Below the pieces are notes generated by a model. The model searched no databases, had not been told where the DNA came from, and saw nothing but the letters and a program-made list of their open reading frames with translations. The translations under genes and the position numbers were made by a program. Shown in pieces: positions 27,352 through 57,801 of a stretch of DNA of 64,000 nt. This DNA is from Bacteroides thetaiotaomicron. GTDB lineage: Bacteria > Bacteroidota > Bacteroidia > Bacteroidales > Bacteroidaceae. Within the stretch, counting starts at the first letter, position 1. Every line of letters starts with the position of its first letter. The stretch covers positions 9,100 to 73,099 of the forward strand of contig DXOL01000057.1 in NCBI GenBank assembly GCA_019412825.1, read 5' to 3'.

Positions 27352-27449
27352 AAATTTTTAGGCACGGATGACACGGATAACACGGTTTTAGTAAACCAAT
27401 AGCTGTGTAAGACCGTGAAATCCGTGTAATCCGTGCCTAATTAAAATTT
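27352..27449. repeat. Long imperfect hairpin element built from CACGGAT repeats, in the mraY-murD spacer.
   Basis: Left arm: TTAGGCACGGATGACACGGATAACACGGT (27358..27386). Right arm: ACCGTGAAATCCGTGTAATCCGTGCCTAA (27412..27440). The flanks are A/T-complementary. Each arm holds about three 9-bp CACGGATnA units. Confidence 0.85.
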
Positions 27450-37150: not shown

Positions 37151-37278
37151 TCATTCAAACTGTCTATTTTTCACGTATCTCTCATTCACTTCAAGGGTAT
37201 CTCTCATTGTTTTTAAGGCTTTATATGTTATCCTGCTACCTATATCCTTCTCTTTTGATACCTACATCTGCATGTTTT

Positions 37279-37398
37279 CTTACCGACATCTTCATCGTTC
37301 CACCCGGGTAGGACGAACTGTCTACTACTGTGACACGATCAGTTCACCTAAGTGCGATGATCATATCACCCGGGTAGAACGATGAAGATATCGGTGAG
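37279..37398. repeat. Element of about 120 bp with 32-bp imperfect terminal inverted repeats and a CACCCGGGT core.
   Basis: Left arm 37279..37310 is CTTACCGACATCTTCATCGTTCCACCCGGGTA. The reverse complement of the right arm 37367..37398 is CTCACCGATATCTTCATCGTTCTACCCGGGTG. Identity is 28/32 and the spacer is 56 bp. Confidence 0.85.
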
Positions 37399-37607
37399 AT
37401 AATATGATAATACCAATTGAAAGACAGGAGAATATAGGATCATTTGCATCTAAAAGAGCGGTAAACAATAACTTCTTTAGTATAAAACAGGATAAGAAGA
37501 ACTAATCATTGCCCTTTTCTAAGGTTACTTGATTTATGAAATCATCCTTTTTGCATCAAATTACAAGAATAATGACATTAAAAATAGCATTATATAAATT
37601 AAAGCTT

Positions 37608-39976: not shown

Positions 39977-41263
39977 ATGAGAAAACTATTAATTATCGTA
40001 TCATTGTTTACAATGATGTCATGTCAAGAGAATCTTGATATGATTGACAGTGAAAACTTACCTGAAACAAGTAGTAGCACGAACCCTGAATTCAAAGTTA
40101 ATGAAGAAGACATTCAATCGACTATCGATGAGTTTTATGGAGTATCCTCTCTCTCTCCTACAAGGGTCGAGAATTCTGTTAATATAAAAAAAATAACTTC
40201 ATTGACTAAAAGCAAGACACGAAATATTGGCAGTGACTCTGATATAGATGTAAATGACATTCTTTATATAGTAAAGTTATCTAATGGAAATACTGCTTTT
40301 GTTGCAGCTGATAAGCGTGCCAAATCATTATATGGCATTGCAGATGGAAATGTAGAGCTTGACAATACTGATCTCATAAACAGTAACATACCCGGTGGAT
40401 TAGTTGCCATTTTAAGCAATGCAATAGCCGATATTAAGTATTCTATAAAATACAATACTGAAGTTAATGACGATTGGAAAACGGTAAACGTTTCCACAAG
40501 GGCAGACTCAGATATAGTTGGAGGAAAAGAAATGTTTACCATGGAGCCTAGGTGTCCAGTTTCTTGGCATCAATTCGCACCGTTTAATAATGCATGTCCT
40601 CTATATACCAACAGCAATGGAGATAAAGTACACTCTGCTGCGGGATGCGTTGCAGTTGCAGCAGCACAAGCTCTATTATGTTTATGGGATCGTTCAAAAA
40701 CTACTTTTTATTACTACACATTAATAACATCATGGGATCGGCTAAGCGAAATAAAACATGACAATCAGTTTATTGCCGGAAGTGATGAAGAAACTGATGT
40801 CGCAAATTTAATACATGAAATCGGACAAGCAGTAGGAATGAAGTATGGACCGAGTAGTAGTGCGAATACAGAAGATGCAGTAAAAGCCGTATGCCTTCTA
40901 TCACAAGGTTATCTCAAATACGAAAGTTCCCCTTTTAATGAAACTATTGAAAACACTTTAGTACAGAAAAGTGGTATAGTATGGTTATCTGCTAGAAATA
41001 GTAATGACGAGGGGCATTCAATGCTAATAGATGCATTACGACTCGTATTTACTACTGGGGCCTGTAGTACATGTGTAGATGCAACAAAATATGTAAAGAG
41101 ATATTTCCATATCAATTATGGATGGGGGGAAAGTTATAATGGCTATTATCTTTATATACCACAATCAGACAATTATGATCAGGATTTGAGATGGGAAGGC
41201 ACATCTAGAACCTTTCCATATAAAATGAAGGCATACAGTGTATGGCAAACAAAAAATGAATAA
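39977..41263 (+). CDS. C10-family (streptopain/SpeB-like) cysteine peptidase lipoprotein with an N-terminal pro-region.
   Basis: Lipobox FTMMSCQE. Catalytic Cys context HSAAGCVAVAAAQALL (compare SpeB GCVATA). His context EGHSMLIDA. Also HINYGWGESYNGYY (compare SpeB HINWGWGG). Confidence 0.88.
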   Translation: MRKLLIIVSLFTMMSCQENLDMIDSENLPETSSSTNPEFKVNEEDIQSTIDEFYGVSSLSPTRVENSVNIKKITSLTKSKTRNIGSDSDIDVNDILYIVKLSNGNTAFVAADKRAKSLYGIADGNVELDNTDLINSNIPGGLVAILSNAIADIKYSIKYNTEVNDDWKTVNVSTRADSDIVGGKEMFTMEPRCPVSWHQFAPFNNACPLYTNSNGDKVHSAAGCVAVAAAQALLCLWDRSKTTFYYYTLITSWDRLSEIKHDNQFIAGSDEETDVANLIHEIGQAVGMKYGPSSSANTEDAVKAVCLLSQGYLKYESSPFNETIENTLVQKSGIVWLSARNSNDEGHSMLIDALRLVFTTGACSTCVDATKYVKRYFHINYGWGESYNGYYLYIPQSDNYDQDLRWEGTSRTFPYKMKAYSVWQTKNE

Positions 41264-41806: not shown

Positions 41807-43156
41807 ATGAAAACAGCAAAATCTAATATTCTAACAGGACTTACCTATGCTTTATCAGTAATAGGTTGTCTATCTGTTGCTTCGTGTGCAGATAATGGGA
41901 ATTACATTGAAAAGGATTCGAGTATAAAATCTGAGTCTGATAATTCAAAATATGACGAAAATAACTATAGTTTTAATACTATAAACTTATGGGGTAGTGA
42001 AGCGGCTGTAGTTGACAAAGGAGACTACTATATTTTTCAAGGTGACATTCACTTATTAAAAGAAGATTTAATCCAAACCAGAGGTGCTGCCAGAATAGAT
42101 CGTAGATGGCCTAACAATAAAGTTTATTATTCTGTGGACGGTATTCCGGCTATATATACAAAGTATATATACAAAGCAATAGAATGGATTGAGAATGGTT
42201 CATATATCGATATGGTACCCCGTTACAATGAAGGAGACTATATTCAATTCAATTTTTTGGATCAGAATGAATGGTCAGCATATTCCGATTATGTAGGCAG
42301 AAAAGGAGGAACTCAAAATATAGGACTATCCCGGGAAGCAATTATAAGCGTTGGCACTATTGCTCATGAAATATGCCATACTATTGGGATGTATCATGAA
42401 ATGAGCAGAACCGACAGGGACAATTACATACGTATTAATTTTGAAGGTATGGATGAAGATACACGATATCAGTATAAAACTTATGCCGAAATGAATCAGA
42501 ATGGAGTAAATGTGGGAAGTTTCGATTTTGGTTCTTTAATGATGTATTCTTCAGGTGGAGTCATGTACAAACTTGATAATAGTTACATAAGATCACAAAG
42601 AGATAGTCTATCAAATACTGACATGTTAACTCTGGCAACATTACAACCTATAGGAGACCAATTCAAATTTTTCGATCCATACGGTTATAATGAACCTTAC
42701 GACAGCGATTATGAATATAGAAGGACCAAAATCATACAATGTCCTGAAGGGGCTAAGATAGACTTCAAATTTCAATATAATTATAAACCTACATCATCTA
42801 ACTTAGGCGGATATACTGTAGACGATTTTAATGTCAGAACCATAATCTCAATTATCAATAGAAATACTAATCAAGAAGTTTATTCAAAAGAAATCCCCCT
42901 TGGCGTCACTACAACATGGACAGATATCTATTTAAGAGGTATCAATATACCACAAGGTGGATTCACTACAAAGGTAACATTAATAGGTTCAGTGAAGGGG
43001 ACATCTACCTCTGATAAATTAAATGCTCTAAAAAGAGTTATGTACAATCCAAGTGTATACTTACATCTCGATAAAGTTGAAATAAAAGGAGTAAATAAAC
43101 ATATTCCCAATGAATTTGGAAATGATGATAGAATCTTTACATTCATATCAATATGA
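41807..43156 (+). CDS. Astacin-family (M12A, flavastacin-like) zinc metallopeptidase lipoprotein with a C-terminal domain of about 170 aa and unknown function.
   Basis: Lipobox SVASCADN. Full astacin signature HEICHTIGMYHEMSRTDRDNYIRI (HExxHxxGxxHExxRxDRD). Met-turn GSLMMYS retains the Tyr. Confidence 0.88.
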   Translation: MKTAKSNILTGLTYALSVIGCLSVASCADNGNYIEKDSSIKSESDNSKYDENNYSFNTINLWGSEAAVVDKGDYYIFQGDIHLLKEDLIQTRGAARIDRRWPNNKVYYSVDGIPAIYTKYIYKAIEWIENGSYIDMVPRYNEGDYIQFNFLDQNEWSAYSDYVGRKGGTQNIGLSREAIISVGTIAHEICHTIGMYHEMSRTDRDNYIRINFEGMDEDTRYQYKTYAEMNQNGVNVGSFDFGSLMMYSSGGVMYKLDNSYIRSQRDSLSNTDMLTLATLQPIGDQFKFFDPYGYNEPYDSDYEYRRTKIIQCPEGAKIDFKFQYNYKPTSSNLGGYTVDDFNVRTIISIINRNTNQEVYSKEIPLGVTTTWTDIYLRGINIPQGGFTTKVTLIGSVKGTSTSDKLNALKRVMYNPSVYLHLDKVEIKGVNKHIPNEFGNDDRIFTFISI

Positions 43157-44222: not shown

Positions 44223-45458
44223 TCATCGTCTATCGTGAAATCTATATCCAATCCCCAACATTAAATTGTTGGGGTCTTTAAACTTACTCAACTGATATCC
44301 CACATGCAGAAATAAATGGCGGGTAACATAAGTTTTGAGAGCCAATATTTGATAGAAACCTTCCGTATCATCGCCACTATATATCATATTTCGTCCGATA
44401 CCGGCATTGATGGAGAAAATAGGCATCACCAGTTCTGCCCGAAGAGACACCCCCACCGCAAATTGTTCGCGGAATGGAGGACGGTGAAACTTTATATCAT
44501 CCCCATAAGTTCCTACTAGCTTATAGTCCTTAATATTGGCACTCTCGTCAAATTGCGCATCCACAGAAAGTCCTGCCCGGAAATAGTTATTGAAATTATA
44601 CATCGGGGCAAAATTGAGACCAACGATTCCGAACGAACCGGGAACCAAAGTGGGGATACCTTCTTTAACGAATCCTCTTTTGCGAGTGGCGCCGTATACC
44701 AACAAGTCATAGCTGACGTGTGGCTTTATGTAAAGACGTTTGGGAGCAATTGCTCCGGACGCCTTATCTTCGGCATTAAAGGTACGTACAATGCCGACTC
44801 TCCCTCCGATAGTATTGAGACCTCCATTGGGATAACGCGTATTTCCATTGGAGAAATGAGTGAAGTCCACACCTACTGCAAGTTTCCACTGTGGATAAAA
44901 CTGCCAGTTCAAGACAAAGCCCAAATTGATATACGCATTGATTTTAGAACCGATAGCGTCATTGTACCAATTGCTGTGTTCATCATATTGTTTCCAACCG
45001 AAAGAAGCACCGAAATTCCACTCATAATCCAACGACAAACGGGATGAAAGCCGTACAATAGGTGCCCCTTGAAAAGCATATACCGCCACCGGATTTCCCA
45101 GTTCAGCGGAATTATAAAATGTATTATGCGAAACACCGATGCCCTGATAAGCATGAGGATACAACCTCCCCAAATAGGAATCTTTGCTGAACTGGAAAGC
45201 ATACTTCAAGTGCAGGGAAAGTGACCGATCAATTTTCTGCCGTTGTGCATTATCGCCTTCAAGGAAACTGTTTGTCGGAGCTACATAGCCCGGACGAACG
45301 TCAAAACCTATCTGATGGATGAGGGCATGGTTGGTGCTGTCATTCTGTTGCCTGACAGGTTTCACTACTGTCTGAGCATCCAATTTGCTGCCGACTGCCG
45401 AGAACAGCAGCAAGCAGATTATATACAGAGACCGTTTGGTATTCATATTTCTACTCAT
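44223..45458 (-). CDS. Outer-membrane acyloxyacyl hydrolase (PagL-like lipid A deacylase family).
   Basis: Signal peptide, beta-barrel-like alternating pattern and an HFSNGN motif (PagL His-x-Ser). The start is at MSRN, giving an ATGA overlap with the upstream gene's stop. Confidence 0.75.
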   Translation of the reverse strand: MSRNMNTKRSLYIICLLLFSAVGSKLDAQTVVKPVRQQNDSTNHALIHQIGFDVRPGYVAPTNSFLEGDNAQRQKIDRSLSLHLKYAFQFSKDSYLGRLYPHAYQGIGVSHNTFYNSAELGNPVAVYAFQGAPIVRLSSRLSLDYEWNFGASFGWKQYDEHSNWYNDAIGSKINAYINLGFVLNWQFYPQWKLAVGVDFTHFSNGNTRYPNGGLNTIGGRVGIVRTFNAEDKASGAIAPKRLYIKPHVSYDLLVYGATRKRGFVKEGIPTLVPGSFGIVGLNFAPMYNFNNYFRAGLSVDAQFDESANIKDYKLVGTYGDDIKFHRPPFREQFAVGVSLRAELVMPIFSINAGIGRNMIYSGDDTEGFYQILALKTYVTRHLFLHVGYQLSKFKDPNNLMLGIGYRFHDRR

Positions 45459-46402
45459 TTGATATTCTCGCGTGCTATATAACATTTTCCGGGCATTTTA
45501 CTTTGCAACGTACCGGTTATAGTACGTTGCCTCCCATTCTTAGGGTGAACAGCATAAAGGGTGTACTCCGTTTCGAACCACTCACATTCTAACAGCATGG
45601 TGATACGTTGAGTAGTTTTAGGCGGGATAGAAATCTCCTTCTTCTCCGTATCAGGGAAAGGCAAAGGCAGTGCTTGCTGCTCAGACGCATATTGCGCCTG
45701 TACACCGTTCATTCCCAACCATTCGTTTTCCATGCTTGGTATCTCTACTGTCGGATTATCTCCACCCAATAGCCGGAAAGCCTCAGGATCATCGCTTTTG
45801 AACACCACTTCATGGTGGGCGTCCTTGTAAGGGAATAACAGGCATGGGGAGGGAGTATCTGAATTATTAGATTGTATAAAACTCTTTGTTTCTTCCAGTC
45901 TCCATTCATGAGAATACGCATTTAAAGAATAAGTGATATGATCGAACACATATCTGTCCGACGGAGTAATTTCAACATATATCTCTTGTGATTCATAGTC
46001 ATTGCTCACTACAAGCATGAATCTAAAATAGTCGTTACGGACGTTTTCGCCCACTGTTATCTTTAGTTCTTTGGGGTTACTGCGTTGAATGATGAAATCG
46101 GTCAGTTTTTCATTGCATACAATCTTGCCTAATCCTTTCAGGTAAGCATCCTGGTTTCTCATTATCAGATTGTCGTCGGCATCATAAACTTCATATTGAT
46201 GGGTAAAGTCACTATCGTAAGTATACATCCAAACCAAATCCCAATTGGAGGATGCAAAACGAATAGTTACCTCATCACCATTCCCGTCCAAAGTAAATTC
46301 GGAATCGGAAGTCCGGAAGTCATCGACGAATACATCATCGTTACACCCATAAAGAACTAGAAAAATAAAAAGATATGCCGTTAAGTTTACGATTGTTTTC
46401 AT
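45455..46402 (-). CDS. Hypothetical lipoprotein, translationally coupled to the PagL-like gene.
   Basis: 315-aa ORF with lipobox LVLYGCNDD. I recognised no family. Confidence 0.7.
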   Translation of the reverse strand: MKTIVNLTAYLFIFLVLYGCNDDVFVDDFRTSDSEFTLDGNGDEVTIRFASSNWDLVWMYTYDSDFTHQYEVYDADDNLIMRNQDAYLKGLGKIVCNEKLTDFIIQRSNPKELKITVGENVRNDYFRFMLVVSNDYESQEIYVEITPSDRYVFDHITYSLNAYSHEWRLEETKSFIQSNNSDTPSPCLLFPYKDAHHEVVFKSDDPEAFRLLGGDNPTVEIPSMENEWLGMNGVQAQYASEQQALPLPFPDTEKKEISIPPKTTQRITMLLECEWFETEYTLYAVHPKNGRQRTITGTLQSKMPGKCYIARENIK

Positions 46403-46540: not shown

Positions 46541-48280
46541 ATGGATGCAGCAATAAAGAAAATACCTTATGGGATGACGGACTTCGAGAGAATCATTCTT
46601 GAAAACTATTACTATGTAGACAAAACACAATATATCGCCAAAGTAGAAAAAGTGACCTCCTTCTTCTTCTTTGTCCGTCCTCGACGTTTCGGAAAAAGCC
46701 TTTTCCTAAACATGCTCGGTTTATACTACGACATCAACCAAAAAGATAAATTCGAGAAAATCTTTGGTAATCTTTATATAGGCAAGCATCCTACGCCTGA
46801 TCGCAACAAATATCTGGTGCTTACACTCAATTTCAGTAGTGTAGCCGCCAATATGGATCGTTTGGAAGAAGCATTCAACACCTATTGCAAAATCGTAATG
46901 GATGGATTTGCAGAACGAAATGCTCATCTGTTAGGGAAAGAAGCCGTTGAAAAGCTACATGAATTAAAAACAGGAGATGCTTTATTGGGATCACTGTGCC
47001 AAAGCGCCCAAAACAAGGGACAAAAGATATATCTTATCCTCGATGAGTACGATAACTTTGCTAACAATATTCTGGTAGATTATGGCAATGAACGTTATCG
47101 CAGCATCACTCATGGCAGCGGATTCTTCCGTAGTTTCCTTAAAGTGGTAAAAGACTATTCAAGTTCAGTGATCGAGCGCATCTTCCTTACAGGCGTAAGC
47201 CCCGTAACAATGGACGATCTCACTAGCGGATTCAACATTGCGGATAATTATAGCAGTTCACCTATCTTTAATAATATGATGGGATTTAATGAACAAGAAG
47301 TACGCACTCTGATCGATTATTACAAAAGTTACCGGGAACTACCGCACACTACAGATGAATTAATAACCATCATGAAACCATGGTACGACAATTACTGTTT
47401 CGCCATGAAAGCACTAAAGGAACCGTCTATGTACAATTCAGATATGGTGCTCTATTTCATGAATCATTATATGCTGAATAAGGACATCCCTGACAACATG
47501 CTCGATGCTAATATTCGCACTGACTACAACAAGCTGCGCCACCTCATCCACGTAGACAAAACTTTCGGTGAAAATGCAAGCGTTGTACAAGAGATTGTAG
47601 AAAAAGGTTCTACTACCGGAATCATTGCAAATAGTTTCCCAGCCGAAGACATTATCAAACCGGAAAACTTTAAAAGCCTGCTCTACTATTACGGCATGCT
47701 AACCATCAGCGGAATGGAAATGGGTGAGCCCATACTGAGCGCCCCCAACTGGGCAGTGCGCGAACAACTTTACGGTTACATGGCAGACATCTACAAAGAT
47801 TCCGCCGACCTATATCTAGAGACAGATAAGCTGGTGGACCGAATGAAACGAATGGCATACAAAGGAGAATGGGAAAATTGCTTCACATACATTGCCGACC
47901 GCTTGAATGCCCAAAGCAGTGTTCGCGACTTCATAGAAGGTGAAGCTTATGTAAAAACCTTTATTTTGGCTTACCTCGGATTGACACATTATTATATTGC
48001 CCGTCCCGAATATGAAAGCAACAAAGGATATGCGGATATCTTTCTGCAACCTCGCCTGCTGCAACTTCCCGACATGGTATACAGCTACTGTATCGAAGTG
48101 AAATATGCAAAACGGGATGTTTCTGACACCGAGATAGAAAAATTGCTGTCCAATGCCAAAATACAACTGAAACAGTATGCAGCAAGCGAATGGATTCATC
48201 AAGACAAAGGGACCACAGAATTAAAGAGTATCGCATTAGTATTCCAAGGCTGGAAACTGGTGAGAGTGGAAGAAGTATAA
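46541..48280 (+). CDS. AAA-ATPase-like domain protein with a C-terminal PD-(D/E)XK nuclease-like domain (PDDEXK_9 type).
   Basis: N-terminal blocks IPYGMTDFERIILENYYYVDKTQYI and FFFVRPRRFGKSLFLNML, plus LILDEYDNF. C-terminal GYADIFLQP...YCIEVKY. Confidence 0.88.
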   Translation: MDAAIKKIPYGMTDFERIILENYYYVDKTQYIAKVEKVTSFFFFVRPRRFGKSLFLNMLGLYYDINQKDKFEKIFGNLYIGKHPTPDRNKYLVLTLNFSSVAANMDRLEEAFNTYCKIVMDGFAERNAHLLGKEAVEKLHELKTGDALLGSLCQSAQNKGQKIYLILDEYDNFANNILVDYGNERYRSITHGSGFFRSFLKVVKDYSSSVIERIFLTGVSPVTMDDLTSGFNIADNYSSSPIFNNMMGFNEQEVRTLIDYYKSYRELPHTTDELITIMKPWYDNYCFAMKALKEPSMYNSDMVLYFMNHYMLNKDIPDNMLDANIRTDYNKLRHLIHVDKTFGENASVVQEIVEKGSTTGIIANSFPAEDIIKPENFKSLLYYYGMLTISGMEMGEPILSAPNWAVREQLYGYMADIYKDSADLYLETDKLVDRMKRMAYKGEWENCFTYIADRLNAQSSVRDFIEGEAYVKTFILAYLGLTHYYIARPEYESNKGYADIFLQPRLLQLPDMVYSYCIEVKYAKRDVSDTEIEKLLSNAKIQLKQYAASEWIHQDKGTTELKSIALVFQGWKLVRVEEV

Positions 48281-49108: not shown

Positions 49109-49116
49109 TATTTTTG
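49109..49116 (+). promoter_or_regulatory. Bacteroides-type -7 box (TATTTTTG) upstream of the recombinase gene.
   Basis: Exact match to TAnnTTTG, 39 bp upstream of the ATG at 49155. Confidence 0.4.
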
Positions 49117-49154: not shown

Positions 49155-50114
49155 ATGAAAAGAAAAAGTAATAAAAACAGCTTTACCGGATGCGCAAAAG
49201 CATACATCCGGAATCTACAAGAAGAGGGCCGTTACTCGACGGCACATGTATACAAAAATGCAATTCTGTCATTTGCCAAGTTTTGTGATACTCCCGAAGT
49301 CGCATTCGGACAAATCAACCGCGATAGTCTGCGACGGTACGGGCAATATCTTTATGACTGCGGATTGAAACCGAACACCGTATCGACTTATATGCGTATG
49401 CTGCGCAGTATCTACAACCGCGGTGTCGAAGCAGGTACGGCCCGTTTCATCCCCCGACTGTTTCGTGACGTATTCACCGGAGTAGATGTCCGGCAGAAGA
49501 AGGCACTGCCCATCAACGAACTGCATATGTTGCTCTACAAAGTCCCCAAGTCCAGCCATCTGCGTCGCACACAAGCGATAGCACGACTGATGTTTCAGCT
49601 CTGCGGTATGCCGTTTGCCGACTTCGCACATCTGGAAAAATCGGCATTGGTACACGGAGTACTGAGATATAACCGTATAAAGACCGGTACTCCCATGAGC
49701 GTCGAAATACTGGAGACCGCCAAGAAGGCAATCAACGGATTGCGCAACAATGAATCCTCCGGAGAGGATTGTCCGGACTACCTGTTCGACATCATGAAAG
49801 GAGATAAAAAGCGGAAAGAAGAGGCAGGATATAAAGAGTATCAATCGGCTCTCAGACGATTCAACAATCAATTGAAGAGTCTTTCCAGAGAATTACGCAT
49901 CAAATCGCCTGTCACCTCATACACCATCCGGCATTCCTGGGCAACGAGCGCCAAATATCAGGGAATCCCCATCGAAATGATCAGCGAATCATTGGGACAT
50001 AAATCAATAAAGACCACGCAAACTTACCTGAAAGGCTTTGGACTGGAAAAACGGACAGAAGCGAATAAATTGAATTGTTTTTACGTAGAGAACTACGTTG
50101 CGAACAAGCACTGA
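49155..50114 (+). CDS. Tyrosine site-specific recombinase (phage-integrase family).
   Basis: N-terminal SAM-like domain. C-terminal catalytic blocks TIRHSWATSA and LGHKSIKTTQTYL (R..H-x-x-R..Y). Confidence 0.9.
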   Translation: MKRKSNKNSFTGCAKAYIRNLQEEGRYSTAHVYKNAILSFAKFCDTPEVAFGQINRDSLRRYGQYLYDCGLKPNTVSTYMRMLRSIYNRGVEAGTARFIPRLFRDVFTGVDVRQKKALPINELHMLLYKVPKSSHLRRTQAIARLMFQLCGMPFADFAHLEKSALVHGVLRYNRIKTGTPMSVEILETAKKAINGLRNNESSGEDCPDYLFDIMKGDKKRKEEAGYKEYQSALRRFNNQLKSLSRELRIKSPVTSYTIRHSWATSAKYQGIPIEMISESLGHKSIKTTQTYLKGFGLEKRTEANKLNCFYVENYVANKH

Positions 50115-50152
50115 GAGACAAGCTATTGAATATAAACAAATTACCTTATCTA

Positions 50153-50442
50153 TTACTTCTTAGGTAACGGAAATAAATACAGCGCAAAGATATAGAAAAA
50201 GAACATCACATTCCAAATTAATTATACATTATTTCACTTCCTTTCTTTCAAAAAAAATAAAAAAGAATACAGGAGCATGAATTATATCTGTTTCATGTTC
50301 CAGACCGCTATTGTGTCTGCCGGACTATTTTTCAGCCGGAAACCTATAAATACACTTTAGAACTCAAAGACCGCTGCCTTTTTTACTTCTTTCCCCTCCA
50401 CATACCGGTCACTAGACCGGATTTCCGTTACCTAAGAAGTAA
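50153..50442. promoter_or_regulatory. Candidate invertible DNA switch: a 246-bp segment flanked by perfect 22-bp inverted repeats and carrying an outward-facing promoter.
   Basis: IR-L is TTACTTCTTAGGTAACGGAAAT (50153..50174). Its exact reverse complement lies at 50421..50442. On the minus strand there is a -7 box TATCTTTG (50192..50185) and a TTTG (50217..50214) with a 21-bp spacer. Confidence 0.7.
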
Positions 50443-50465
50443 CAGAAACACATAAACAAAAGATT

Positions 50466-51134
50466 ATGACACACAAACCCGATAGGAATAGAAAAAGGAT
50501 ATCTACAGCCGGCAGCATAAAGGGATTCACGACAGTCTTGAAATGTATGTTGGCAAGTATACTCCTTACCTGTCTTTTGCCCGCCTCCAGTCTATACGGG
50601 CAGAAGATAGCCGTCAAGAGTAATCTGCTCTATGACCTCACAACCACCTTCAATATAGGGGGAGAGTTAAGATGTGACGATACGCACACTCTTAATCTCT
50701 CTGTCAACTACAATCCCTGGAACTTCGGGGGAAACAAAAAGATGAAGCATTTCATGCTCCAACCGGAGTACCGCAAATGGTTTGACGGAGTGTTTATGGG
50801 AAGTTACATCGGCTTTCAACTTCACTATGCTCTATTCAACTTCGGCGGAATGCTCCCTTGGGGATTCGGAAATGGTAAAATGCTGGGTATCGAAAACAGG
50901 CAGATTGCCAACAACCGGTATCAAGGTAACCTGGCGGGCTTTGGCATCTCCTATGGTTATCAATGGATGATCAGTCCGCAATGGAATCTGGAAGCGGGAC
51001 TTTCACTGGGATATGCCCACCTCAATTACAAACGCTATGGACAGCCCGAAGGCGCTGCCTTTATCGAAAAATCCCACTGCAACTACTGGGGACCCACGCA
51101 GATAGGAATATCACTCGTGTATTTCATTCAGTAA
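50466..51134 (+). CDS. DUF3575-like small outer-membrane beta-barrel protein (copy 1).
   Basis: Blocks KSNLLYD, LSVNYNPW and QPEYRKWF, with an alternating beta-strand pattern. An alternative start is at 50547 (MLASILL...). Confidence 0.8.
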   Translation: MTHKPDRNRKRISTAGSIKGFTTVLKCMLASILLTCLLPASSLYGQKIAVKSNLLYDLTTTFNIGGELRCDDTHTLNLSVNYNPWNFGGNKKMKHFMLQPEYRKWFDGVFMGSYIGFQLHYALFNFGGMLPWGFGNGKMLGIENRQIANNRYQGNLAGFGISYGYQWMISPQWNLEAGLSLGYAHLNYKRYGQPEGAAFIEKSHCNYWGPTQIGISLVYFIQ

Positions 51135-51156
51135 ATCAATTAAATCACAACATAAC

Positions 51157-52212
51157 ATGAAAACGAAAGCATTCATCTTTTTCAGTTTATTGATATGCAA
51201 CTTGCTACCGGCACAGAACGTTAAGCTGGATATCGTACCCCACTTCTTCGGCATCCGTGCAGATTCACTGTTTCTGTCCATGGATATCTCAATCCATATA
51301 AAGGACATGGATTCCAAGAGTGCCTTTATGCTGACACCCGTGCTGACCAGCCAGGAGAAAAGAGTATCACTGCCGCACATACAACTGAACGGTAAGCAGA
51401 AACAGAAACTATATCTGCGCAATCAGATTTTACGCAAGAAGAATGACCGGAAAGAAGAGGATGCGAAAGCTTATCTGATTGCCGGCATTGACGAGGACCA
51501 CTCCCGCACCATTTCCTACCGGACTTCATTGCCGGCAGAGGATTGGATGAACAATGCAACACTGACACTTAAAAGAACTATTGTCCGTCCGGAAGGTGAA
51601 CAGTCTCTGAAAGATACAATCGTCATAACCCAAGAGAACATAGCAGCATCTTCCGGCGCAATAGTTCCTTCCGGTACGGCTACACAAGAGGTCGTTTCTC
51701 TTCCTGTTGTCAATGAACGTCCTACGAGTCCGGTAGCCGGCAGCAAAATGAAATACAAAGGTACTTACGTCTCGCCCGAAACGGATGATGTGGACGCACG
51801 AAATCAGAAAGAACTGAATTTCAGCCTTGAAGAGGCGAAAATGATAGCGGAGATCAACCCACAGATGCTGTCTCTCCGCGAACTCTACACAGTCGCCCTG
51901 TCTTATACGGAAGACAAAGCCCGGTTTTACAAGATTATCAATATTAGCGTCAAGCTATATCCCGTACATCCGGTTGCCAACCTGAATGCAGCAGCTGCCG
52001 CCATTGAACAGGGAGACGTCAAATCGGCAGGTAAGTTCCTTTCAATGGCTCTTCACGATAGTCTGGCCTACAAAAACTGCCGCGGAGTATACGAACTAAT
52101 GTCCGGAAACACCTACGAAGGCATCCGAATGCTGAAAGCCGCCAAGGCCGAAGGCTCCGAGGAAGCTGCATATAATCTGAATGCATTTTTTGAAAACAAT
52201 AAACGCCCTTAA
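51157..52212 (+). CDS. DUF3868-like secreted protein with C-terminal TPR-like repeats (copy 1, no OmpA motif).
   Basis: Signal peptide MKTKAFIFFSLLICNLLPAQ. N-terminal domain similar to that of 53037..54452. C-terminal helical repeats (VANLNAAAAAIEQGDVKSAGKFL). Confidence 0.75.
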   Translation: MKTKAFIFFSLLICNLLPAQNVKLDIVPHFFGIRADSLFLSMDISIHIKDMDSKSAFMLTPVLTSQEKRVSLPHIQLNGKQKQKLYLRNQILRKKNDRKEEDAKAYLIAGIDEDHSRTISYRTSLPAEDWMNNATLTLKRTIVRPEGEQSLKDTIVITQENIAASSGAIVPSGTATQEVVSLPVVNERPTSPVAGSKMKYKGTYVSPETDDVDARNQKELNFSLEEAKMIAEINPQMLSLRELYTVALSYTEDKARFYKIINISVKLYPVHPVANLNAAAAAIEQGDVKSAGKFLSMALHDSLAYKNCRGVYELMSGNTYEGIRMLKAAKAEGSEEAAYNLNAFFENNKRP

Positions 52213-52224
52213 TCAACGTATACA

Positions 52225-52788
52225 ATGAAACGTTTCATATTCCTGCTCTTATTACTTGGATGCCTGGACGCTTACTCGCAGAAAGTAGCTATCAGGGTGA
52301 ATGCGCTTTCTGCCATAGACGGAGCTTTCGGAGGGGGAATTTCGTATGCCATAGGAAACAAGAGCACAGTCGAGCTTACCGGAAGCCTGCGACCGTGGAA
52401 GCGGAGCGAAGAATATGTCAACCGTTACTGGCTCCTGCAGCCCGAATACAAATACTGGACTTGCCAGAAGTATAACGGTCTTTTCTGGGGAGGATATCTG
52501 AACGGTGCCCAGTTCAACATCGGAGGTAAGAAACTGCCTTTCGGCATATTCTCCCAACTGAAACGCCACCGGTACGAAGGCTGGCTGGCAGGCGGAGGCA
52601 TCAGCTGCGGATATCACTGGATGCTGAATGACCACTGGAACATAGAAACAAGTATAGGAGTAGGATACGAATTTATCCACTACAGGCAATACAACTGCGT
52701 AGACAAATGCGCAAAGCTAAGAGAAGAAGGAAAATATCATTACGTAGGACCTAGCAAGGCCTCTATAAGTTTAATCTACCTATTTTAA
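52225..52788 (+). CDS. DUF3575-like small outer-membrane beta-barrel protein (copy 2).
   Basis: Signal peptide and blocks RVNALSA, LTGSLRPW and QPEYKYW. It ends in the OMP beta-signal ...SLIYLF. Confidence 0.82.
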   Translation: MKRFIFLLLLLGCLDAYSQKVAIRVNALSAIDGAFGGGISYAIGNKSTVELTGSLRPWKRSEEYVNRYWLLQPEYKYWTCQKYNGLFWGGYLNGAQFNIGGKKLPFGIFSQLKRHRYEGWLAGGGISCGYHWMLNDHWNIETSIGVGYEFIHYRQYNCVDKCAKLREEGKYHYVGPSKASISLIYLF

Positions 52789-52804
52789 AGAAGAAGAAAG
52801 AAAG

Positions 52805-52996
52805 ATGAAAAAATTATGGAAAGTCTGGTTCTCCAAACGGAGACACGTCTACATGGAGATAGCACGCAAACATCGGTCTACCCCGTGGAGGGTATACCAT
52901 CTGGGACATGGTGGCAGAGGAAAAACATTGAAAGATATGAGGATATTGGAAGAACTGCAGCAATACGGAATCATATCTCATATCTATCCTTGGTGA
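52805..52996 (+). CDS. Possible small basic protein with an HTH-like segment.
   Basis: The 63-aa ORF neatly fills the 248-bp gap in the pilus operon. EIARKHRSTPWRVYHL resembles an HTH recognition segment. There is no other support, and alternative-frame ORFs overlap it. Confidence 0.3.
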   Translation: MKKLWKVWFSKRRHVYMEIARKHRSTPWRVYHLGHGGRGKTLKDMRILEELQQYGIISHIYPW

Positions 52997-53036
52997 ACAG
53001 ACTGCTTTTAAATATAGATTCATTATTAGTACAACT

Positions 53037-54452
53037 ATGAAACTGGGAGGAGTTTTTATCATTGCGGTCATAGCATCTCTATCGCTACAGGCGCAAACGA
53101 CCGTAGAAGAAGCTAACGGAACGATCCGAGCTACCGCTTCCAGCCTTCACAAGGCAGGGGAAGAACTGGTGGTTTCTATTTCGGTAGAGATCACCCGCGA
53201 TCTCTCGCCCAACGAATCGCTGGTTCTCATACCCGTTGTCACCGACAGTCTGGAGAATCGGTTGGAACTGCCTTCCATCTACATCAATAGCCGGAAACAG
53301 CAAATCATATTCATGCGCGAAACGGGCAAAAAGGAGAAAGAAGCCCGTTCGCTGCAAAGAAAGAACGGAAGCAGGCAAAGCATACATTATCTGCAATCCG
53401 TTCCTTTCGAGAAGTGGATGAATCATGCTACACTCTCACTGATAGAGAAAAGCTGTGGTTGTGGCATCGCCGGCGAAGAAGCCTTCACTTGTATCGCCCG
53501 CCTGCATCCGCAACCAATACCTGTCCCACAACTCGTATTTCTCACCCCACAAGTGGAGGGGCTGAAAACCAGAACTGAGAAAGGATGCGCATTCATCGAC
53601 TTTCCCGTAAATGACGTCATCATACACAAAACATACAGCAACAATGCGACGGAACTGAATAAGATCACTCAAACCATAGACGCCATCAGAAATGATTCGA
53701 ATGTAACCATCACACATATCAGCATACACGGCTATGCATCGCCCGACGGCCCTTACCAACTTAACGAAAGGTTATCCCGCGAACGCACACAGGCATTGAA
53801 GGAATATGTGTGCCGGTTATACACGTTTAATCCAACGGATATTCATACTTCTCATACTCCCGAAGACTGGGAAGGGTTCGAAGCCCTTCTCACTGATACA
53901 GCCTTTCAATGGAAGGAGGCAGTCATGAAAATCGTGACAGGCAACCTGCACCCCGACCGCAAGGAAGAGAAATTGAAAAAACAATTTCCGGCATTCTATC
54001 GCTTTGTGCTGGAACATTGGTTCACGCTGCTCAGACATTCCGATTATACCATCGAATATCATGTACGTCCTTTCAGCGTAGAAGAATCACGAAATGTTTT
54101 CGCCACTAATCCCAAGAACCTGAGCCTTGAAGAGATGTTCCGCCTCGCACTCACCTGTACACCGGGAAGCGAAGCATACAACAAAATCTTCATGACTGCC
54201 GTACAATTGTTCCCGGATAATCCCGTTGCCAATCTGAACGCAGCCTGCATCGCTCTGATGCAAAGAGACGTGCAGTCCGCCGCACATTATCTGGAGAAAG
54301 CACCGGAAGTACCGGAAACAGCATTGGCAAAAGGTGTCCTGCACCTTCTTCAAGAGAAGTATGAGGAAGCGGAAACACTCTTCAAACAAGCCAAAGCCGC
54401 CGGACTGTCACAAGCAGACAACAATCTGAAACAAATATTAGAGCTTAAATAA
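53037..54452 (+). CDS. DUF3868-like / OmpA-family peptidoglycan-associated protein with C-terminal TPR-like repeats (copy 2).
   Basis: Signal peptide and an N-terminal domain paralogous to 51157..52212. OmpA-like block ISIHGYASPDGPYQLNERLSRERTQALKEYV. C-terminal VANLNAACIALMQRDVQSAAHYL. Confidence 0.8.
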   Translation: MKLGGVFIIAVIASLSLQAQTTVEEANGTIRATASSLHKAGEELVVSISVEITRDLSPNESLVLIPVVTDSLENRLELPSIYINSRKQQIIFMRETGKKEKEARSLQRKNGSRQSIHYLQSVPFEKWMNHATLSLIEKSCGCGIAGEEAFTCIARLHPQPIPVPQLVFLTPQVEGLKTRTEKGCAFIDFPVNDVIIHKTYSNNATELNKITQTIDAIRNDSNVTITHISIHGYASPDGPYQLNERLSRERTQALKEYVCRLYTFNPTDIHTSHTPEDWEGFEALLTDTAFQWKEAVMKIVTGNLHPDRKEEKLKKQFPAFYRFVLEHWFTLLRHSDYTIEYHVRPFSVEESRNVFATNPKNLSLEEMFRLALTCTPGSEAYNKIFMTAVQLFPDNPVANLNAACIALMQRDVQSAAHYLEKAPEVPETALAKGVLHLLQEKYEEAETLFKQAKAAGLSQADNNLKQILELK

Positions 54453-54477
54453 ATGTTTAATTAAAATCAATGGTAAG

Positions 54478-55974
54478 ATGAAACAATTTACAAAACTAAT
54501 GGCAATGCTCCTGTTTACAGCAGCCACACAGTACAGTTGCATCAATGATGCAGATGTAGCAATCCCCGACAAAACGCAGTCGGACTCGAACGGCAACGTA
54601 GCCCTGTTCCTTGAAATCCCGAATGTTCCCGCCAGCCGGAGTGCCGAATCATCGGGTGTAACCGAAGAAGGCTCGAAAGAAGAGTATGCGGTAAAAACCC
54701 TTACGGTCTACTTCTTTGACTCGGCCACTAAAACTTTCGTTGAGTCCCAGCCTCTTGAAAACATCACACTGGCAGGGACAAGCGGACAAAAAATACACTA
54801 CACCGCCAACAAAATCACAATGAAACCGGGAACTTACAACGTATTTGCCATCGCCAACGGTGAAGCAATCACAGCGGACATCGCAACACAGGACAAATTC
54901 CTCGGAGCTATCGACAAAGTGACATACAGCGCAGGAAAGATTCCAAGTGTACCCGAGAGAGGATTCGTAATGACCAACCGTGGTGCCGCAAATCTGAATG
55001 TCGAAATAAGCAAGCCCACAGATTCCGACAAAGTAACCGACATTTCCATTAGTCTGGAACGTGTCGTTGCCAAAGTTGAAGTGACACAGACACAAGAGAC
55101 TTTCCCCCTGAAAGACCCGGCCGGAAAGACTTACTGTACGGTCAAACTCAATAACTTCAGAATGCTGAACCTGGCAACCCAGTTCTACACATTCCGCCAT
55201 ACAGCCGTGCTGACCAGCCTTCAGGAACCGGACTCATACACTGATGAGAACTTCGGCAACATCAACGATAACGACGGTTATGTAATAGACCCTTACTTCT
55301 TCAAGAAAACCGTAGAAGGTGCCAAAGACTTCAAGAATGAGGACGGTTTCTTTGCACAGGCACTGGTACAGCTTAACATTGACGACAGCAACTGGGCAGG
55401 CATGGCTCCGGCAAATAGCTGGTCACGCATCTACTGCCTGGAGAACTGTATGTTCCGTCCCGCCCAACTGAATGCCTATACCACGGGAGTGATGTTCAAA
55501 GCAAGTATCGACATTGCCACCGACCGTGTATTCAACGAAAACGGAGAAACAGTAAGCAACCCGTCCAACTGGCCGACCAACCTGTTCTACTTCAACTACA
55601 ACTTCTACACCAGCGTAAATGCAATCAGAAAACTGGTACTCAACAACCTGCCCGGAGACATTACCGACAACTCGACAACAGAAGAGCTTGCCAAATACAG
55701 CATCAAGCGTTTCAAGAAAACCGAAAACTACGCATGCTACTACAACTACTGGATCAAGCATGAAGACAACAACAACGACACCGAAATGGGAGTCATGGAA
55801 TTTGGCATCGTACGCAACAATATATACAGACTGTCAGTCAATAAAGTAGCAGGCCTGGGCAGCGGCGAACCATTTATCGAGCCGGAACAACCGGATGAAT
55901 ACAAAGCAGAACTGAACATCAACATCGATGTTTTTCCGTGGGCCGTACGTAACCAAGATGTAGAACTTGAATAA
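54478..55974 (+). CDS. Mfa1/FimA-type fimbrillin (type V pilus major or stalk subunit) lipoprotein precursor.
   Basis: Lipobox ATQYSCIND. First strand plus Arg (NVALFLEIPNVPASR), as expected for a type V pilin propeptide. C-terminal block GIVRNNIYRLSVNKVAGLGSGEP. Confidence 0.8.
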   Translation: MKQFTKLMAMLLFTAATQYSCINDADVAIPDKTQSDSNGNVALFLEIPNVPASRSAESSGVTEEGSKEEYAVKTLTVYFFDSATKTFVESQPLENITLAGTSGQKIHYTANKITMKPGTYNVFAIANGEAITADIATQDKFLGAIDKVTYSAGKIPSVPERGFVMTNRGAANLNVEISKPTDSDKVTDISISLERVVAKVEVTQTQETFPLKDPAGKTYCTVKLNNFRMLNLATQFYTFRHTAVLTSLQEPDSYTDENFGNINDNDGYVIDPYFFKKTVEGAKDFKNEDGFFAQALVQLNIDDSNWAGMAPANSWSRIYCLENCMFRPAQLNAYTTGVMFKASIDIATDRVFNENGETVSNPSNWPTNLFYFNYNFYTSVNAIRKLVLNNLPGDITDNSTTEELAKYSIKRFKKTENYACYYNYWIKHEDNNNDTEMGVMEFGIVRNNIYRLSVNKVAGLGSGEPFIEPEQPDEYKAELNINIDVFPWAVRNQDVELE

Positions 55975-56006
55975 GTATCGGCCACTTTGAACTAAATTTA
56001 TTACCA

Positions 56007-56987
56007 ATGCGTCCATTTTTACTACATATTATCTGCATCGTCACGCTGTTCTCATCCTGCAACTGGGTGAACGACGATCTGTCAGACTGCCCTACCGGGA
56101 CCTGGTTGAAAATCTCGTATACCTATAATATACTGGATGTGGATGCCGCTTCCTCGCAAGTAGGCGACATCACCATTTTTACTTTCGACAAGAACAACAA
56201 GTATGTGGACAGACTGGACGTAGACAGTATCGCATTACATCAAGGCTACTGTATGGTAAGAGTGCCGTTTCCCGAAGGGAGCTATCATCTGCTCTTGTGG
56301 GGAGGAGCCTCCGACCGTCAATACCGGTTCCCTTATCTCAAAACCGGTCAGACGGAACGGAAATCATTGCTCCTTTCATTGATATGCAACAGTGAAAAAC
56401 AGATGAACGGGAAATTGAACGGCCTCTTCTACGGTAGCCTTGAAAATATAACTATCAGTAATGACTATCAGGTATTGGATGCTCCCTTAGTCAAAAACAC
56501 CAATTATTTCTCATGCATCCTTCAGGATGAAAACAACAACCTGCTGAATAAGGAAGATTTCACTTTCACACTGGAGGCCGCCAATGGTGTGATGGATCAT
56601 ACCAACACTCCGTTGGGGACGGAACCGGTTTACTATCATCCATACCGGCAGGAAGTCAGTATACTCAATGAAGAAGAAATCCCTGTCATTCATGCCCGGT
56701 TGAACACATTGCGCATCATGAAAGGAGATCAGACCACATTGACCATAAAGCATATACCCAGCGGACAGGAAATTCTACGTCTTCCGCTCACCCAGTATCT
56801 ACTGTTATCCAAAATCCACAGTCATACCGGCGATGAGATGGGCGATCAGGAATATCTTGACAGGCAGGATTCATATACCCTTTTATTCTTCATACAGTCA
56901 TCGGATATGGGGATTCCGAAGATATGCCCGAGAATAATGGTAAACGGATGGACTGTACGGCTGAATGATTCAGAACTGGAGTTTTAG
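56007..56987 (+). CDS. FimB/Mfa2-family fimbrial anchor/terminator subunit.
   Basis: Lipobox TLFSSCNW followed by DDLSDCP, which is typical of Mfa2-like proteins. It lies immediately downstream of the fimbrillin gene. Confidence 0.75.
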   Translation: MRPFLLHIICIVTLFSSCNWVNDDLSDCPTGTWLKISYTYNILDVDAASSQVGDITIFTFDKNNKYVDRLDVDSIALHQGYCMVRVPFPEGSYHLLLWGGASDRQYRFPYLKTGQTERKSLLLSLICNSEKQMNGKLNGLFYGSLENITISNDYQVLDAPLVKNTNYFSCILQDENNNLLNKEDFTFTLEAANGVMDHTNTPLGTEPVYYHPYRQEVSILNEEEIPVIHARLNTLRIMKGDQTTLTIKHIPSGQEILRLPLTQYLLLSKIHSHTGDEMGDQEYLDRQDSYTLLFFIQSSDMGIPKICPRIMVNGWTVRLNDSELEF

Positions 56988-57180
56988 GAACACATGACTG
57001 ATTGTATGCGTACGGAATTTAGGTGAGATGTTCTACAGAAAAGGCTACTGTGAAGTATCCGAGTGGTATTTTATACCCTTTATTCGCATGTTTAGTTTCC
57101 CACAACATGCTAAATTTCCTTATAAAACGGCACTTCATTGAAGGACTGTTTTATTAATTGTTTGTTTTGTTTGTGTTGGT

Positions 57181-57212
57181 GCACCCGTCCAAGCGAGGAT
57201 GGGTGCGCTTTT
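57181..57212 (+). terminator. Hairpin plus T run downstream of the pilus operon.
   Basis: GCACCCGTCC-AAGCGA-GGATGGGTGC followed by GCTTTT. Confidence 0.5.
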
Positions 57213-57592
57213 ACTCGTCCAATAAAAGACTATCATTTGCATACATGAAACAGAAGGTGCAAATGATACGCTTGTTTATATCCGTACATCTATAAACACT
57301 TTACTGTTTCTCATAGTTCACGACCATACTCCATTAATCGCTAAAACAATCATCCGATTATAAGAAAAGTTGCAAATACATCGTTTTTTCAAAATCAATA
57401 TAACAATGAGAATGGAAGTCCATAAAGTCCTTTATATATAATAAGGTGTAAATATAGCGTATTATCGATAGCCTTACAGACAGTGATATTTTTTTCGACA
57501 AACCGTAATCTCATATTTTGCTGAAAATCAAGCACTATAACCCCACCCCACAGAAAAAAAGAGAAAAAACTACATATTTTTTTCGTGAATTG

Positions 57593-57623
57593 TTTGTCAG
57601 TTTCAAAAAAGTTCCTACCTTTG
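57593..57623 (+). promoter_or_regulatory. Consensus Bacteroides promoter (TTTG, 19-bp spacer, TACCTTTG) for tRNA-Glu and rpsT.
   Basis: TTTG at 57593..57596, a 19-bp spacer, and TACCTTTG at 57616..57623. The tRNA starts 65 bp downstream. Confidence 0.65.
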
Positions 57624-57687
57624 CATCCGCAATCGAGAAACAAACACTGATTCGAGAGAGCAAAAAGCAGAAATGCAACAACAGGAT

Positions 57688-57759
57688 GGCCCGTTCGTCT
57701 ATCGGTTAGGACGCAAGATTTTCATTCTTGAAAGGGGGGTTCGATTCCCCCACGGGCTA
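57688..57759 (+). tRNA. tRNA-Glu (anticodon UUC); CCA is not encoded.
   Basis: Hand-folded cloverleaf. Acceptor GGCCCGT/ACGGGCT, D stem GTCT/GGAC, anticodon stem CAAGA/TCTTG with loop TTTTCAT, 4-nt variable loop, T arm GGGGG-TTCGATT-CCCCC, discriminator A. Confidence 0.88.
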
Positions 57760-57801
57760 CAAATAAAAAGAATAAAGAACTAAAAAAATAGATTAGTCGA
57801 A

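Follow-up and report, generated by a model that had tools for sequence, protein, structure and literature searches.

A probable Tsr-type promoter inversion switch between a tyrosine recombinase gene and a type V pilus operon in Bacteroides thetaiotaomicron

The closest described relative of the locus reported here is the Mfa1 fimbria inverton of Phocaeicola vulgatus ATCC 8482, which consists of the tyrosine recombinase gene tsr BVU2684, an invertible promoter and the genes BVU2683-BVU2678 (PMC12940148). Expression from that switch differs more than 100-fold between the ON and OFF orientations, the pili were visualised by electron microscopy and a small ON population is present in culture (PMC12940148). 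The locus examined here lies in a stretch of 64,000 nucleotides of Bacteroides thetaiotaomicron DNA (GenBank assembly GCA_019412825.1, contig DXOL01000057.1, positions 9,100 to 73,099 of the forward strand), referred to throughout as the window, whose numbering is used unless another locus is named. Within it, a tyrosine recombinase gene (49155-50114), a 246-bp segment (50175-50420) flanked by 22-bp inverted repeats (IRs) and a six-gene pilus operon (50466-56987) follow one another. The locus is very probably a Tsr-type inverton, in which the recombinase inverts the 246-bp promoter cassette between the repeats and thereby phase-varies the pilus operon.

The P. vulgatus inverton resembles the locus in several respects: a tyrosine recombinase gene is placed directly upstream of an IR-flanked promoter, the IR fits the motif TACTTNNNANGTAANNGAA, and the six-gene operon, which ends with the Mfa1 shaft and the Mfa2 anchor and has no recognisable Mfa3-5, is mostly OFF in culture. 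The two differ in genus, the likeness being one of layout, motif and gene families, and in P. vulgatus a second tsr and extracellular polysaccharide (EPS) switch lies next door, whereas the window holds no such neighbour. Function (adhesion, aggregation and TNF-alpha induction) was proven in P. vulgatus, while the present locus is known from its sequence and from RNA contigs.

The motif TACTTNNNANGTAANNGAA is that of the invertible promoters of P. vulgatus BVU2684 and BVU2677 and of B. fragilis BF2766 (Tsr19) (PMC12940148, PMC4747536). The same IR motif family is shared with the two promoters switched by B. fragilis Tsr19, IVp-I (EPS) and IVp-II (BF3397-BF3403, outer-membrane/Mfa1-like) (PMC4747536), and in both organisms a tyrosine recombinase flips, or here would flip, promoter cassettes placed before surface-structure operons. 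The ON fraction of the B. fragilis population at the Tsr19 switches shifts in the mouse gut (PMC4747536). Unlike the present cassette, which is adjacent to its recombinase gene and almost always OFF, IVp-II is distant from the recombinase and about 60% ON in culture.

A further group of relatives is defined by the core GTTACTTCTTAGGTAACGGA, a proven IR of capsular polysaccharide (CPS) invertons in B. xylanisolvens and B. thetaiotaomicron and of eight S-layer/OmpA loci in B. thetaiotaomicron (PMC12118408; bioRxiv 10.1101/521070). The locus shares with the CPS invertons and with those of S-layer/OmpA lipoproteins of the BT1927 type an identical core (GTTACTTCTTAGGTAACGGA / CCGTTACCTAAGAAGTAAC) and an upstream tyrosine recombinase (bioRxiv 10.1101/521070; PMC12118408; PMC4611039), as well as a promoter within a fragment of a few hundred base pairs between the repeats and the rarity of ON cells in culture. 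It differs in cargo, which is capsule or S-layer there and a type V pilus here, and in fragment length (approximately 290-301 bp against 246 bp). Among the cargoes recognised for invertons of gut Bacteroidota are fimbrillin genes (PMC11892184).

In contrast to the serine-invertase invertons of the Mpi and Hin/Gin type, the enzyme adjacent to the switch is a tyrosine recombinase, and no resolvase-type serine recombinase domain was detected in any gene examined within 5 kb. At the E. coli fimS switch the tyrosine recombinases FimB and FimE act from genes upstream on a promoter cassette of about 300 bp and, by inverting it, make type 1 fimbriae phase-variable; as in the present locus, the recombinase gene reads toward the switch. 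The E. coli system is non-homologous and differs in its 9-bp repeats, its sigma-70 promoter, its dependence on IHF, Lrp and H-NS and its chaperone-usher pili.

Architecture and conservation of the switch

The left repeat (IR-L, 50153-50174, TTACTTCTTAGGTAACGGAAAT) and the right repeat (IR-R, 50421-50442), its exact reverse complement, form a perfect 22-bp pair and represent the candidate left and right recombination sites; outward extension lengthens them to 26 nt with one mismatch (50149-50174 and 50421-50446). IR-L includes TACTT-CTT-A-G-GTAA-CG-GAA and fits the published motif TACTTNNNANGTAANNGAA and the core GTTACTTCTTAGGTAACGGA (PMC12940148, PMC12118408). A distance of 38 nt separates the stop codon of the recombinase open reading frame (ORF) from IR-L, and 23 nt separate IR-R from the first ATG of the operon at 50466. 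When the window was searched with the 22-mer of the IR, allowing up to three mismatches, no other site was found (0 expected, 100 shuffles), and the pair was the sole inverted repeat of the window with at least 20 nt, at least 90% complementarity and arms more than 100 nt apart. Rfam gave no match in the switch, its one match in the window being the tRNA-Glu at 57688-57759. The remaining strong inverted repeats of the window were simple hairpins; two of these, both intergenic, are located at 37271-37406 (39-nt arms, 87%, 58-nt gap) and at 27358-27440 (33-nt arms, 88%, 17-nt gap, CACGGAT-like units) and are probably terminators or repeat elements.

Between the recombinase stop codon and the operon ATG (50115-50465), a single full match to the Bacteroides -7 consensus TAnnTTTG was found on either strand, namely TATCTTTG on the minus strand (50192..50185). 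Together with a -33 box TTTG (50217..50214, minus strand) 21 nt upstream, it forms the putative switch promoter TTTG-N21-TATCTTTG (50217..50185), located about 10 bp inside IR-L and oriented away from the operon, which places the window copy in the OFF state. On the plus strand of the same interval the sole match with one mismatch, at 50326, falls within a region free of RNA and offers no alternative promoter. Taken alone, the combined -33/-7 pattern is no rarity (3 observed in the window, 2.2 expected), and the significance of the cassette promoter therefore derives from its position and conservation and not from the pattern match alone. In its architecture the locus was found to be as set out in a preliminary description prepared from the letters of the window, which had reported perfect 22-bp repeats around a 246-bp segment, a recombinase upstream, a type V pilus operon downstream, a sole full -7 match on the minus strand with TTTG 21 nt upstream and a promoter facing away from the operon.

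A comparative scan of one genome per species identified 11 loci, all from Bacteroides, two of which (L010 and L011) are paralogous switches residing in the same genomes as L001 and L003. DNA identity to the window was 97% for two uncultured species, 91% for a B. xylanisolvens metagenome-assembled genome and 89% for B. faecis, the others being more distant, and the recombinases of the 11 loci were 64-99% identical. The repeat core TTACTTCTTAGGTAAC(G/A)GA was present at the equivalent position in all 11, and the IRs were perfect or near perfect across species although the neighbouring sequence diverges. The -33/-7 promoter beside IR-L was retained in 10 of the 11 loci, while identity over the remaining cassette fell to approximately 72%. 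A similar pattern was obtained from 48 natural metagenome haplotypes, in which conservation reached 0.997 for the -7 box, 0.995 for the -33 box and 0.975 for IR-L, compared with 0.79-0.89 for the rest of the segment, and in which the -33/-7 pair was intact in 46; IR-R and the right flank were left out of this calculation because the search pattern biases them.

The same pilus operon follows the switch at eight loci (L002 and L007 being judged by near-identity to L001 and L006). At L008 the same IR core (L008:3983-4261) and a recombinase of 64% identity precede a capsule locus (4285-5640, UpxY/NusG-like and then a Wza-type exporter). The paralogous switches L010:3995-4290 and L011:3995-4290 carry the same IR and promoter together with a recombinase of 78% identity, and no recognisable cargo was found there, the ORFs before pdxJ all being shorter than 125 aa and without Pfam matches; they may be orphan or decayed switches, which could still titrate or supply recombinase. 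Since cargo differs among the 11 loci, the module of recombinase, repeats and promoter serves varied surface loci, both pili and capsule. Within the species the locus is strain-variable: 49155-56987 was wholly absent from seven of eight raw-read isolates carrying the same species label, and was carried by other isolates and by many gut metagenomes.

Inversion of the segment and the proposed mechanism

The inverted orientation, which the preliminary description had suggested seeking in population data, was present in a contig of 2,092 nt (depth 20) from the mouse-gut metagenome X18. In this contig 49900-50174 and 50421-50900 lie on one strand and 50175-50420 on the opposite one, with joints at 50174|50420 and 50175|50421 that share 22 nt, as predicted for the ON form. 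The inverted stretch corresponds exactly to 50175-50420 and contains the strain's own single-nucleotide polymorphisms (SNPs). Contigs of 2,092, 2,097 and 2,092 nt from X15, X16 and X17, which belong to the same study, were collinear with the window and thus OFF, and share the 25 differences from the window seen in X18, identifying them as one strain. A single strain thus occurs in nature in both orientations, and the breakpoints fall within the repeats. The collinear segment was also recovered from X12 and X74.

The OFF orientation predominated elsewhere. All 11 genome loci of the comparative scan were OFF, and when metagenome contigs were searched for an exact copy of the junction specific to ON (promoter end, IR-R and right flank), 0 matches were obtained. 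An orientation-neutral pattern retrieved at least 120 metagenome contigs, of which every classifiable one (114/114) was OFF; of six contigs broken near IR-R, five were short stubs reading OFF and one was without upstream sequence. In culture X74 the locus was covered at approximately 220x with no strand-switch joints, which limits the ON fraction to less than roughly 1-2%.

No raw reads from X22 or X23 fell on the locus, and it was absent from seven organism-B runs (X62, X65, X67, X68, X69, X71 and X85, two of them Nanopore). Joints classed as 'opposite strand' in these seven runs were rejected as paralogue noise, since paralogous pieces of IR and recombinase account for all their matches. At IR-L, the breaks of contigs from X1-X3 and X14 were likewise not accepted as mixed orientation, as the same runs hold the same IR with different flanks, and joints skipping 239, 221 or 245 derive from paralogous switches and were not counted as deletions at this locus.

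In the proposed mechanism, the single Bacteroides-type promoter of the cassette would in the OFF state fire to the left and antisense to the recombinase gene at its 3' end, leaving the six-gene operon without a promoter. Recombination within the repeats would flip the cassette and carry the -7 box to 50403-50410, about 10 bp inside IR-R and directed into the operon. Transcription in the ON state would then begin at or just inside IR-R and proceed through the whole operon, and the ON subpopulation would make Mfa1-type pili. The adjacent recombinase would possibly be assisted by paralogous Tsr enzymes with specificity for the same repeat core and, more speculatively, a palindrome with a T-run in the cassette and a hairpin at IR-R might insulate against read-through.

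The palindrome, GGAGCATGAA-N10-TTCATGTTCC (50272-50301), and the T-rich run (50271..50249) form a minus-strand element at 50249-50301 that was recognised by arm conservation, the arms being kept in 12 of 12 aligned loci including the CPS-linked L008. As an RNA terminator it was rejected: its fold was no better than that of shuffled sequences (z -1.1), it was missed by the terminator scan and its wobble pairs favour different strands between loci. Judged from its sequence and placement, the element may serve as a terminator or insulator that precedes the promoter, or may bind a protein. The hairpin CCGGTC-ACTA-GACCGG (50405-50420, plus strand), which abuts IR-R, was a weak hit among the 11 terminator-like sites of the scan, a number not enriched over the 9.0 expected. 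With one compensatory pair only and a consensus energy of -2.8 kcal/mol it was set aside as a supported RNA structure; a possible role would be to block read-through in the OFF state. Upstream of the cassette promoter, an A8 run (50249-50256) is one base shorter in all organism-B-type strains (X41-X44, X74), a homopolymer length polymorphism.

It is also conceivable, although rather unlikely, that the switch feeds back on its own recombinase in a manner resembling the orientational control of fimE, so that recombinase supply and switching rates would depend on orientation. Because tsr ends 38 nt before IR-L without a terminator, its mRNA must read into the cassette. In the OFF state it would meet the cassette promoter head-on, giving antisense RNA over the tsr 3' end, and in the ON state it would meet the palindrome and T-run, now placed as a sense-strand terminator. 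Such feedback, if true, could account for OFF being so strongly favoured in culture and in assemblies from the human gut, whereas ON dominates and expression is high in some samples from the mouse gut; a possible alternative cause of this contrast is selection for piliated cells by the host environment.

Recombinase, operon RNA and competing explanations

The recombinase gene (49155-50114, plus strand) encodes a Tsr-type tyrosine recombinase of 319 aa, a candidate invertase, with Pfam matches to Phage_int_SAM_5 (1.1e-18) and Phage_integrase (4.5e-14), in agreement with the preliminary description. No specific invertase family was assigned by NCBIfam, all matches being far under the cut-offs. 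The catalytic C-terminus aligns with XerA (4a8e) and IntI4, and of the superfamily's catalytic set R-K-H-R-H/W-Y, residues K176, R259, H282 and Y291, the nucleophile tyrosine, are present and invariant in 12 homologues. For transcription of the gene, a weak candidate -7 box was read from the sequence (TATTTTTG, 49109-49116, plus strand, 39 nt upstream of the ATG), with no -33 TTTG at consensus spacing.

Operon RNA was abundant in mouse-gut metatranscriptomes. Contigs of 7,290 nt (X45, depth 348), 7,298 nt (X46, depth 138) and 6,604 nt (X47, depth 214) begin at 50432, 50438 and 50438, respectively, on the plus strand, and in X44 the operon had a depth of 398 compared with 3-7 over the recombinase gene and the segment. 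An operon RNA start outside the switch, which according to the preliminary description would have told against it, was looked for; the 5' ends instead lie at 50432-50438 inside IR-R, with an upstream depth of 0 in X45-X47. An Illumina adapter abuts each of these contigs, which shows that they terminate at real fragment ends. Their position fits a start at the IR-R boundary if the outermost 5' sequence was lost, as is usual in RNA-seq libraries; the ends are not mapped transcription start sites (TSSs), and they may be library-truncated or processed and not true TSSs. The samples with high expression are presumably ON at the DNA level.

Several observations weigh against inversion by the adjacent recombinase as the means by which the operon is switched. 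A single ON contig was found, while 11/11 genomes, 114/114 contigs and the X74 culture were all OFF, and orientation and expression come from different samples (DNA from X15-X18, RNA from X44-X47). From the flipped -7 box to the RNA 5' ends downstream the distance is 22-28 nt, more than is typical of start sites in Bacteroides. In the recombinase, the Arg-I position aligns to P153 (GMPFAD) and His-II to Y256 (YTIR), the alignment near Arg-I being of low confidence; both residues are invariant in 12 homologues, and a non-canonical active-site layout is possible. Finally, the palindrome and the hairpin proposed as terminator or insulator elements are without statistical support.

Among the alternatives, the one that survives best accepts the switch as real and regards the adjacent recombinase as dispensable, paralogous Tsr enzymes inverting the segment, or fully backing up its inversion, in trans. 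Paralogous switches that share a genome (L001/L010 and L003/L011, with tsr genes 78% identical) are bordered by the IR core of the present switch, as is the capsule locus L008 (tsr 64% identical), and at least six different right flanks were found joined to the same IR in reads and contigs of single strains. Experiments in related organisms point the same way: in P. vulgatus the deletion of either tsr alone was without effect and both enzymes flip both promoters (PMC12940148), and one B. fragilis Tsr works on a promoter far away (PMC4747536). Because several loci per genome share the core and these enzymes act in trans or redundantly, Tsr redundancy has to be taken as a serious possibility, although its probability is considered to be clearly below even. 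It is opposed by the strict synteny and co-conservation of recombinase gene and switch in 11/11 loci, which argue for a cis-linked role of the adjacent gene and are the basis on which that gene is put forward here as the likely catalyst of inversion.

Considerably less probable is a fixed, orientation-independent operon promoter at or just after IR-R, with inversion serving, for example, antisense control of the recombinase gene. Such a promoter would account for RNA 5' ends that lie within IR-R, a sequence identical in both orientations, and rather far (22-28 nt) from the flipped -7 box. In the OFF configuration, however, no TAnnTTTG was found within 100 nt upstream of the RNA 5' ends, even with one mismatch allowed; at the homologous P. 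vulgatus locus the two orientations differ more than 100-fold in expression (PMC12940148); and no part of the cassette is better conserved than the promoter boxes. That the IRs are a non-flipping relic or structural element and the inverted contig an assembly artefact at a repeat is scarcely credible: the overwhelming majority of assemblies are indeed OFF and De Bruijn contigs often break at the IR, which is shared with paralogous loci, but the repeat of 22-26 nt is shorter than the 31-mer words of the assembler, so that a contig such as that of X18, crossing both junctions with unique flanks, needs truly spanning reads, and moreover its inverted stretch is exactly 50175-50420 with the strain's SNPs and the IRs stay perfect or nearly so across species despite diverging surroundings.

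The pilus operon, its neighbours and significance

The six co-oriented genes of the operon, all on the plus strand, constitute by their family matches a type V (Mfa1-type) pilus locus, as the preliminary description had it. The first gene (50466-51134) encodes an outer-membrane beta-barrel-like DUF3575 protein (Pfam 1.1e-61), the second (51157-52212) a DUF3868 protein (1.4e-32), the third (52225-52788) another DUF3575 protein (2.4e-60) and the fourth (53037-54452) a protein with a DUF3868 N-terminus (2e-07) and weak OmpA-like/TPR matches below the cut-off. The fifth gene (54478-55974) encodes an Mfa1-family major fimbrial subunit, which matched NCBIfam NF038041 fim_Mfa1_fam over its full length with 234.7 bits (cut-off 130) and also gave Pfam matches to Fimbrillin_C, P_gingi_FimA and Mfa2. 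The sixth (56007-56987) encodes an Mfa2-type anchor/terminator pilin (PF08842 Mfa2, 4.2e-74, 250 bits, profile positions 1-277 of 277). Lipobox-type N-termini were recognised by eye in the translations of both pilins, Mfa1 (...AATQYSC, Cys21) and Mfa2 (...LFSSC, Cys18), consistent with lipoproteins. No Pfam match to the tip or accessory pilins Mfa3-5 or FimC-E was found in the operon, the other four genes being DUF3575 or DUF3868. The operon RNA contigs (approximately 7.3 kb) extend about 700 nt beyond the Mfa2 stop codon, as far as the tRNA-Glu (57688-57760), and 56988-57760 is without an ORF of at least 50 aa; this RNA could be a long 3' untranslated region, an unannotated small gene or RNA, or the product of merged transcripts.

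The locus is bordered by recO upstream and by tRNA-Glu, rpsT and gyrB downstream, in otherwise ordinary chromosome. The gene at 46541-48280, separated from the recombinase gene downstream of it by about 0.9 kb that includes recO, encodes a protein with an AAA-ATPase_like domain and a C-terminal PDDEXK_9 domain (PD-(D/E)XK nuclease). A C10-family (streptopain-like) cysteine peptidase (39977-41263) and an astacin-family metallopeptidase (41807-43156) are encoded by neighbouring genes and are followed by a PagL-domain protein (44223-45485). Farther genes of the window include the dcw cluster, glycoside hydrolases and peptidases.

The switch is a further member of the well-described Tsr inverton class, real but ordinary. 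Mildly new are the direct evidence obtained on the locus and its variable presence among strains, as well as the contrast between a near-universal OFF state, seen in cultures and across the searched metagenome assemblies, and the ON orientation and high expression in some mouse-gut samples. A phase-variation switch was thus correctly picked out by a reading of the raw sequence, and the Mfa1-type pilus operon of the B. faecis / B. xylanisolvens / B. thetaiotaomicron group joins a small set of Tsr-controlled type V loci. Silent in culture and in almost every assembly, the locus can nevertheless dominate in the mouse gut as a highly transcribed one, so that standard in-vitro transcriptomes and reference genomes will under-report these pili, and the orientation of the switch is worth checking in work on colonisation, adhesion or immune stimulation with such strains. 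The repeat core recurs in the same genomes at switches for capsule and S-layer, which points to a shared recombinase network that could coordinate several surface structures.

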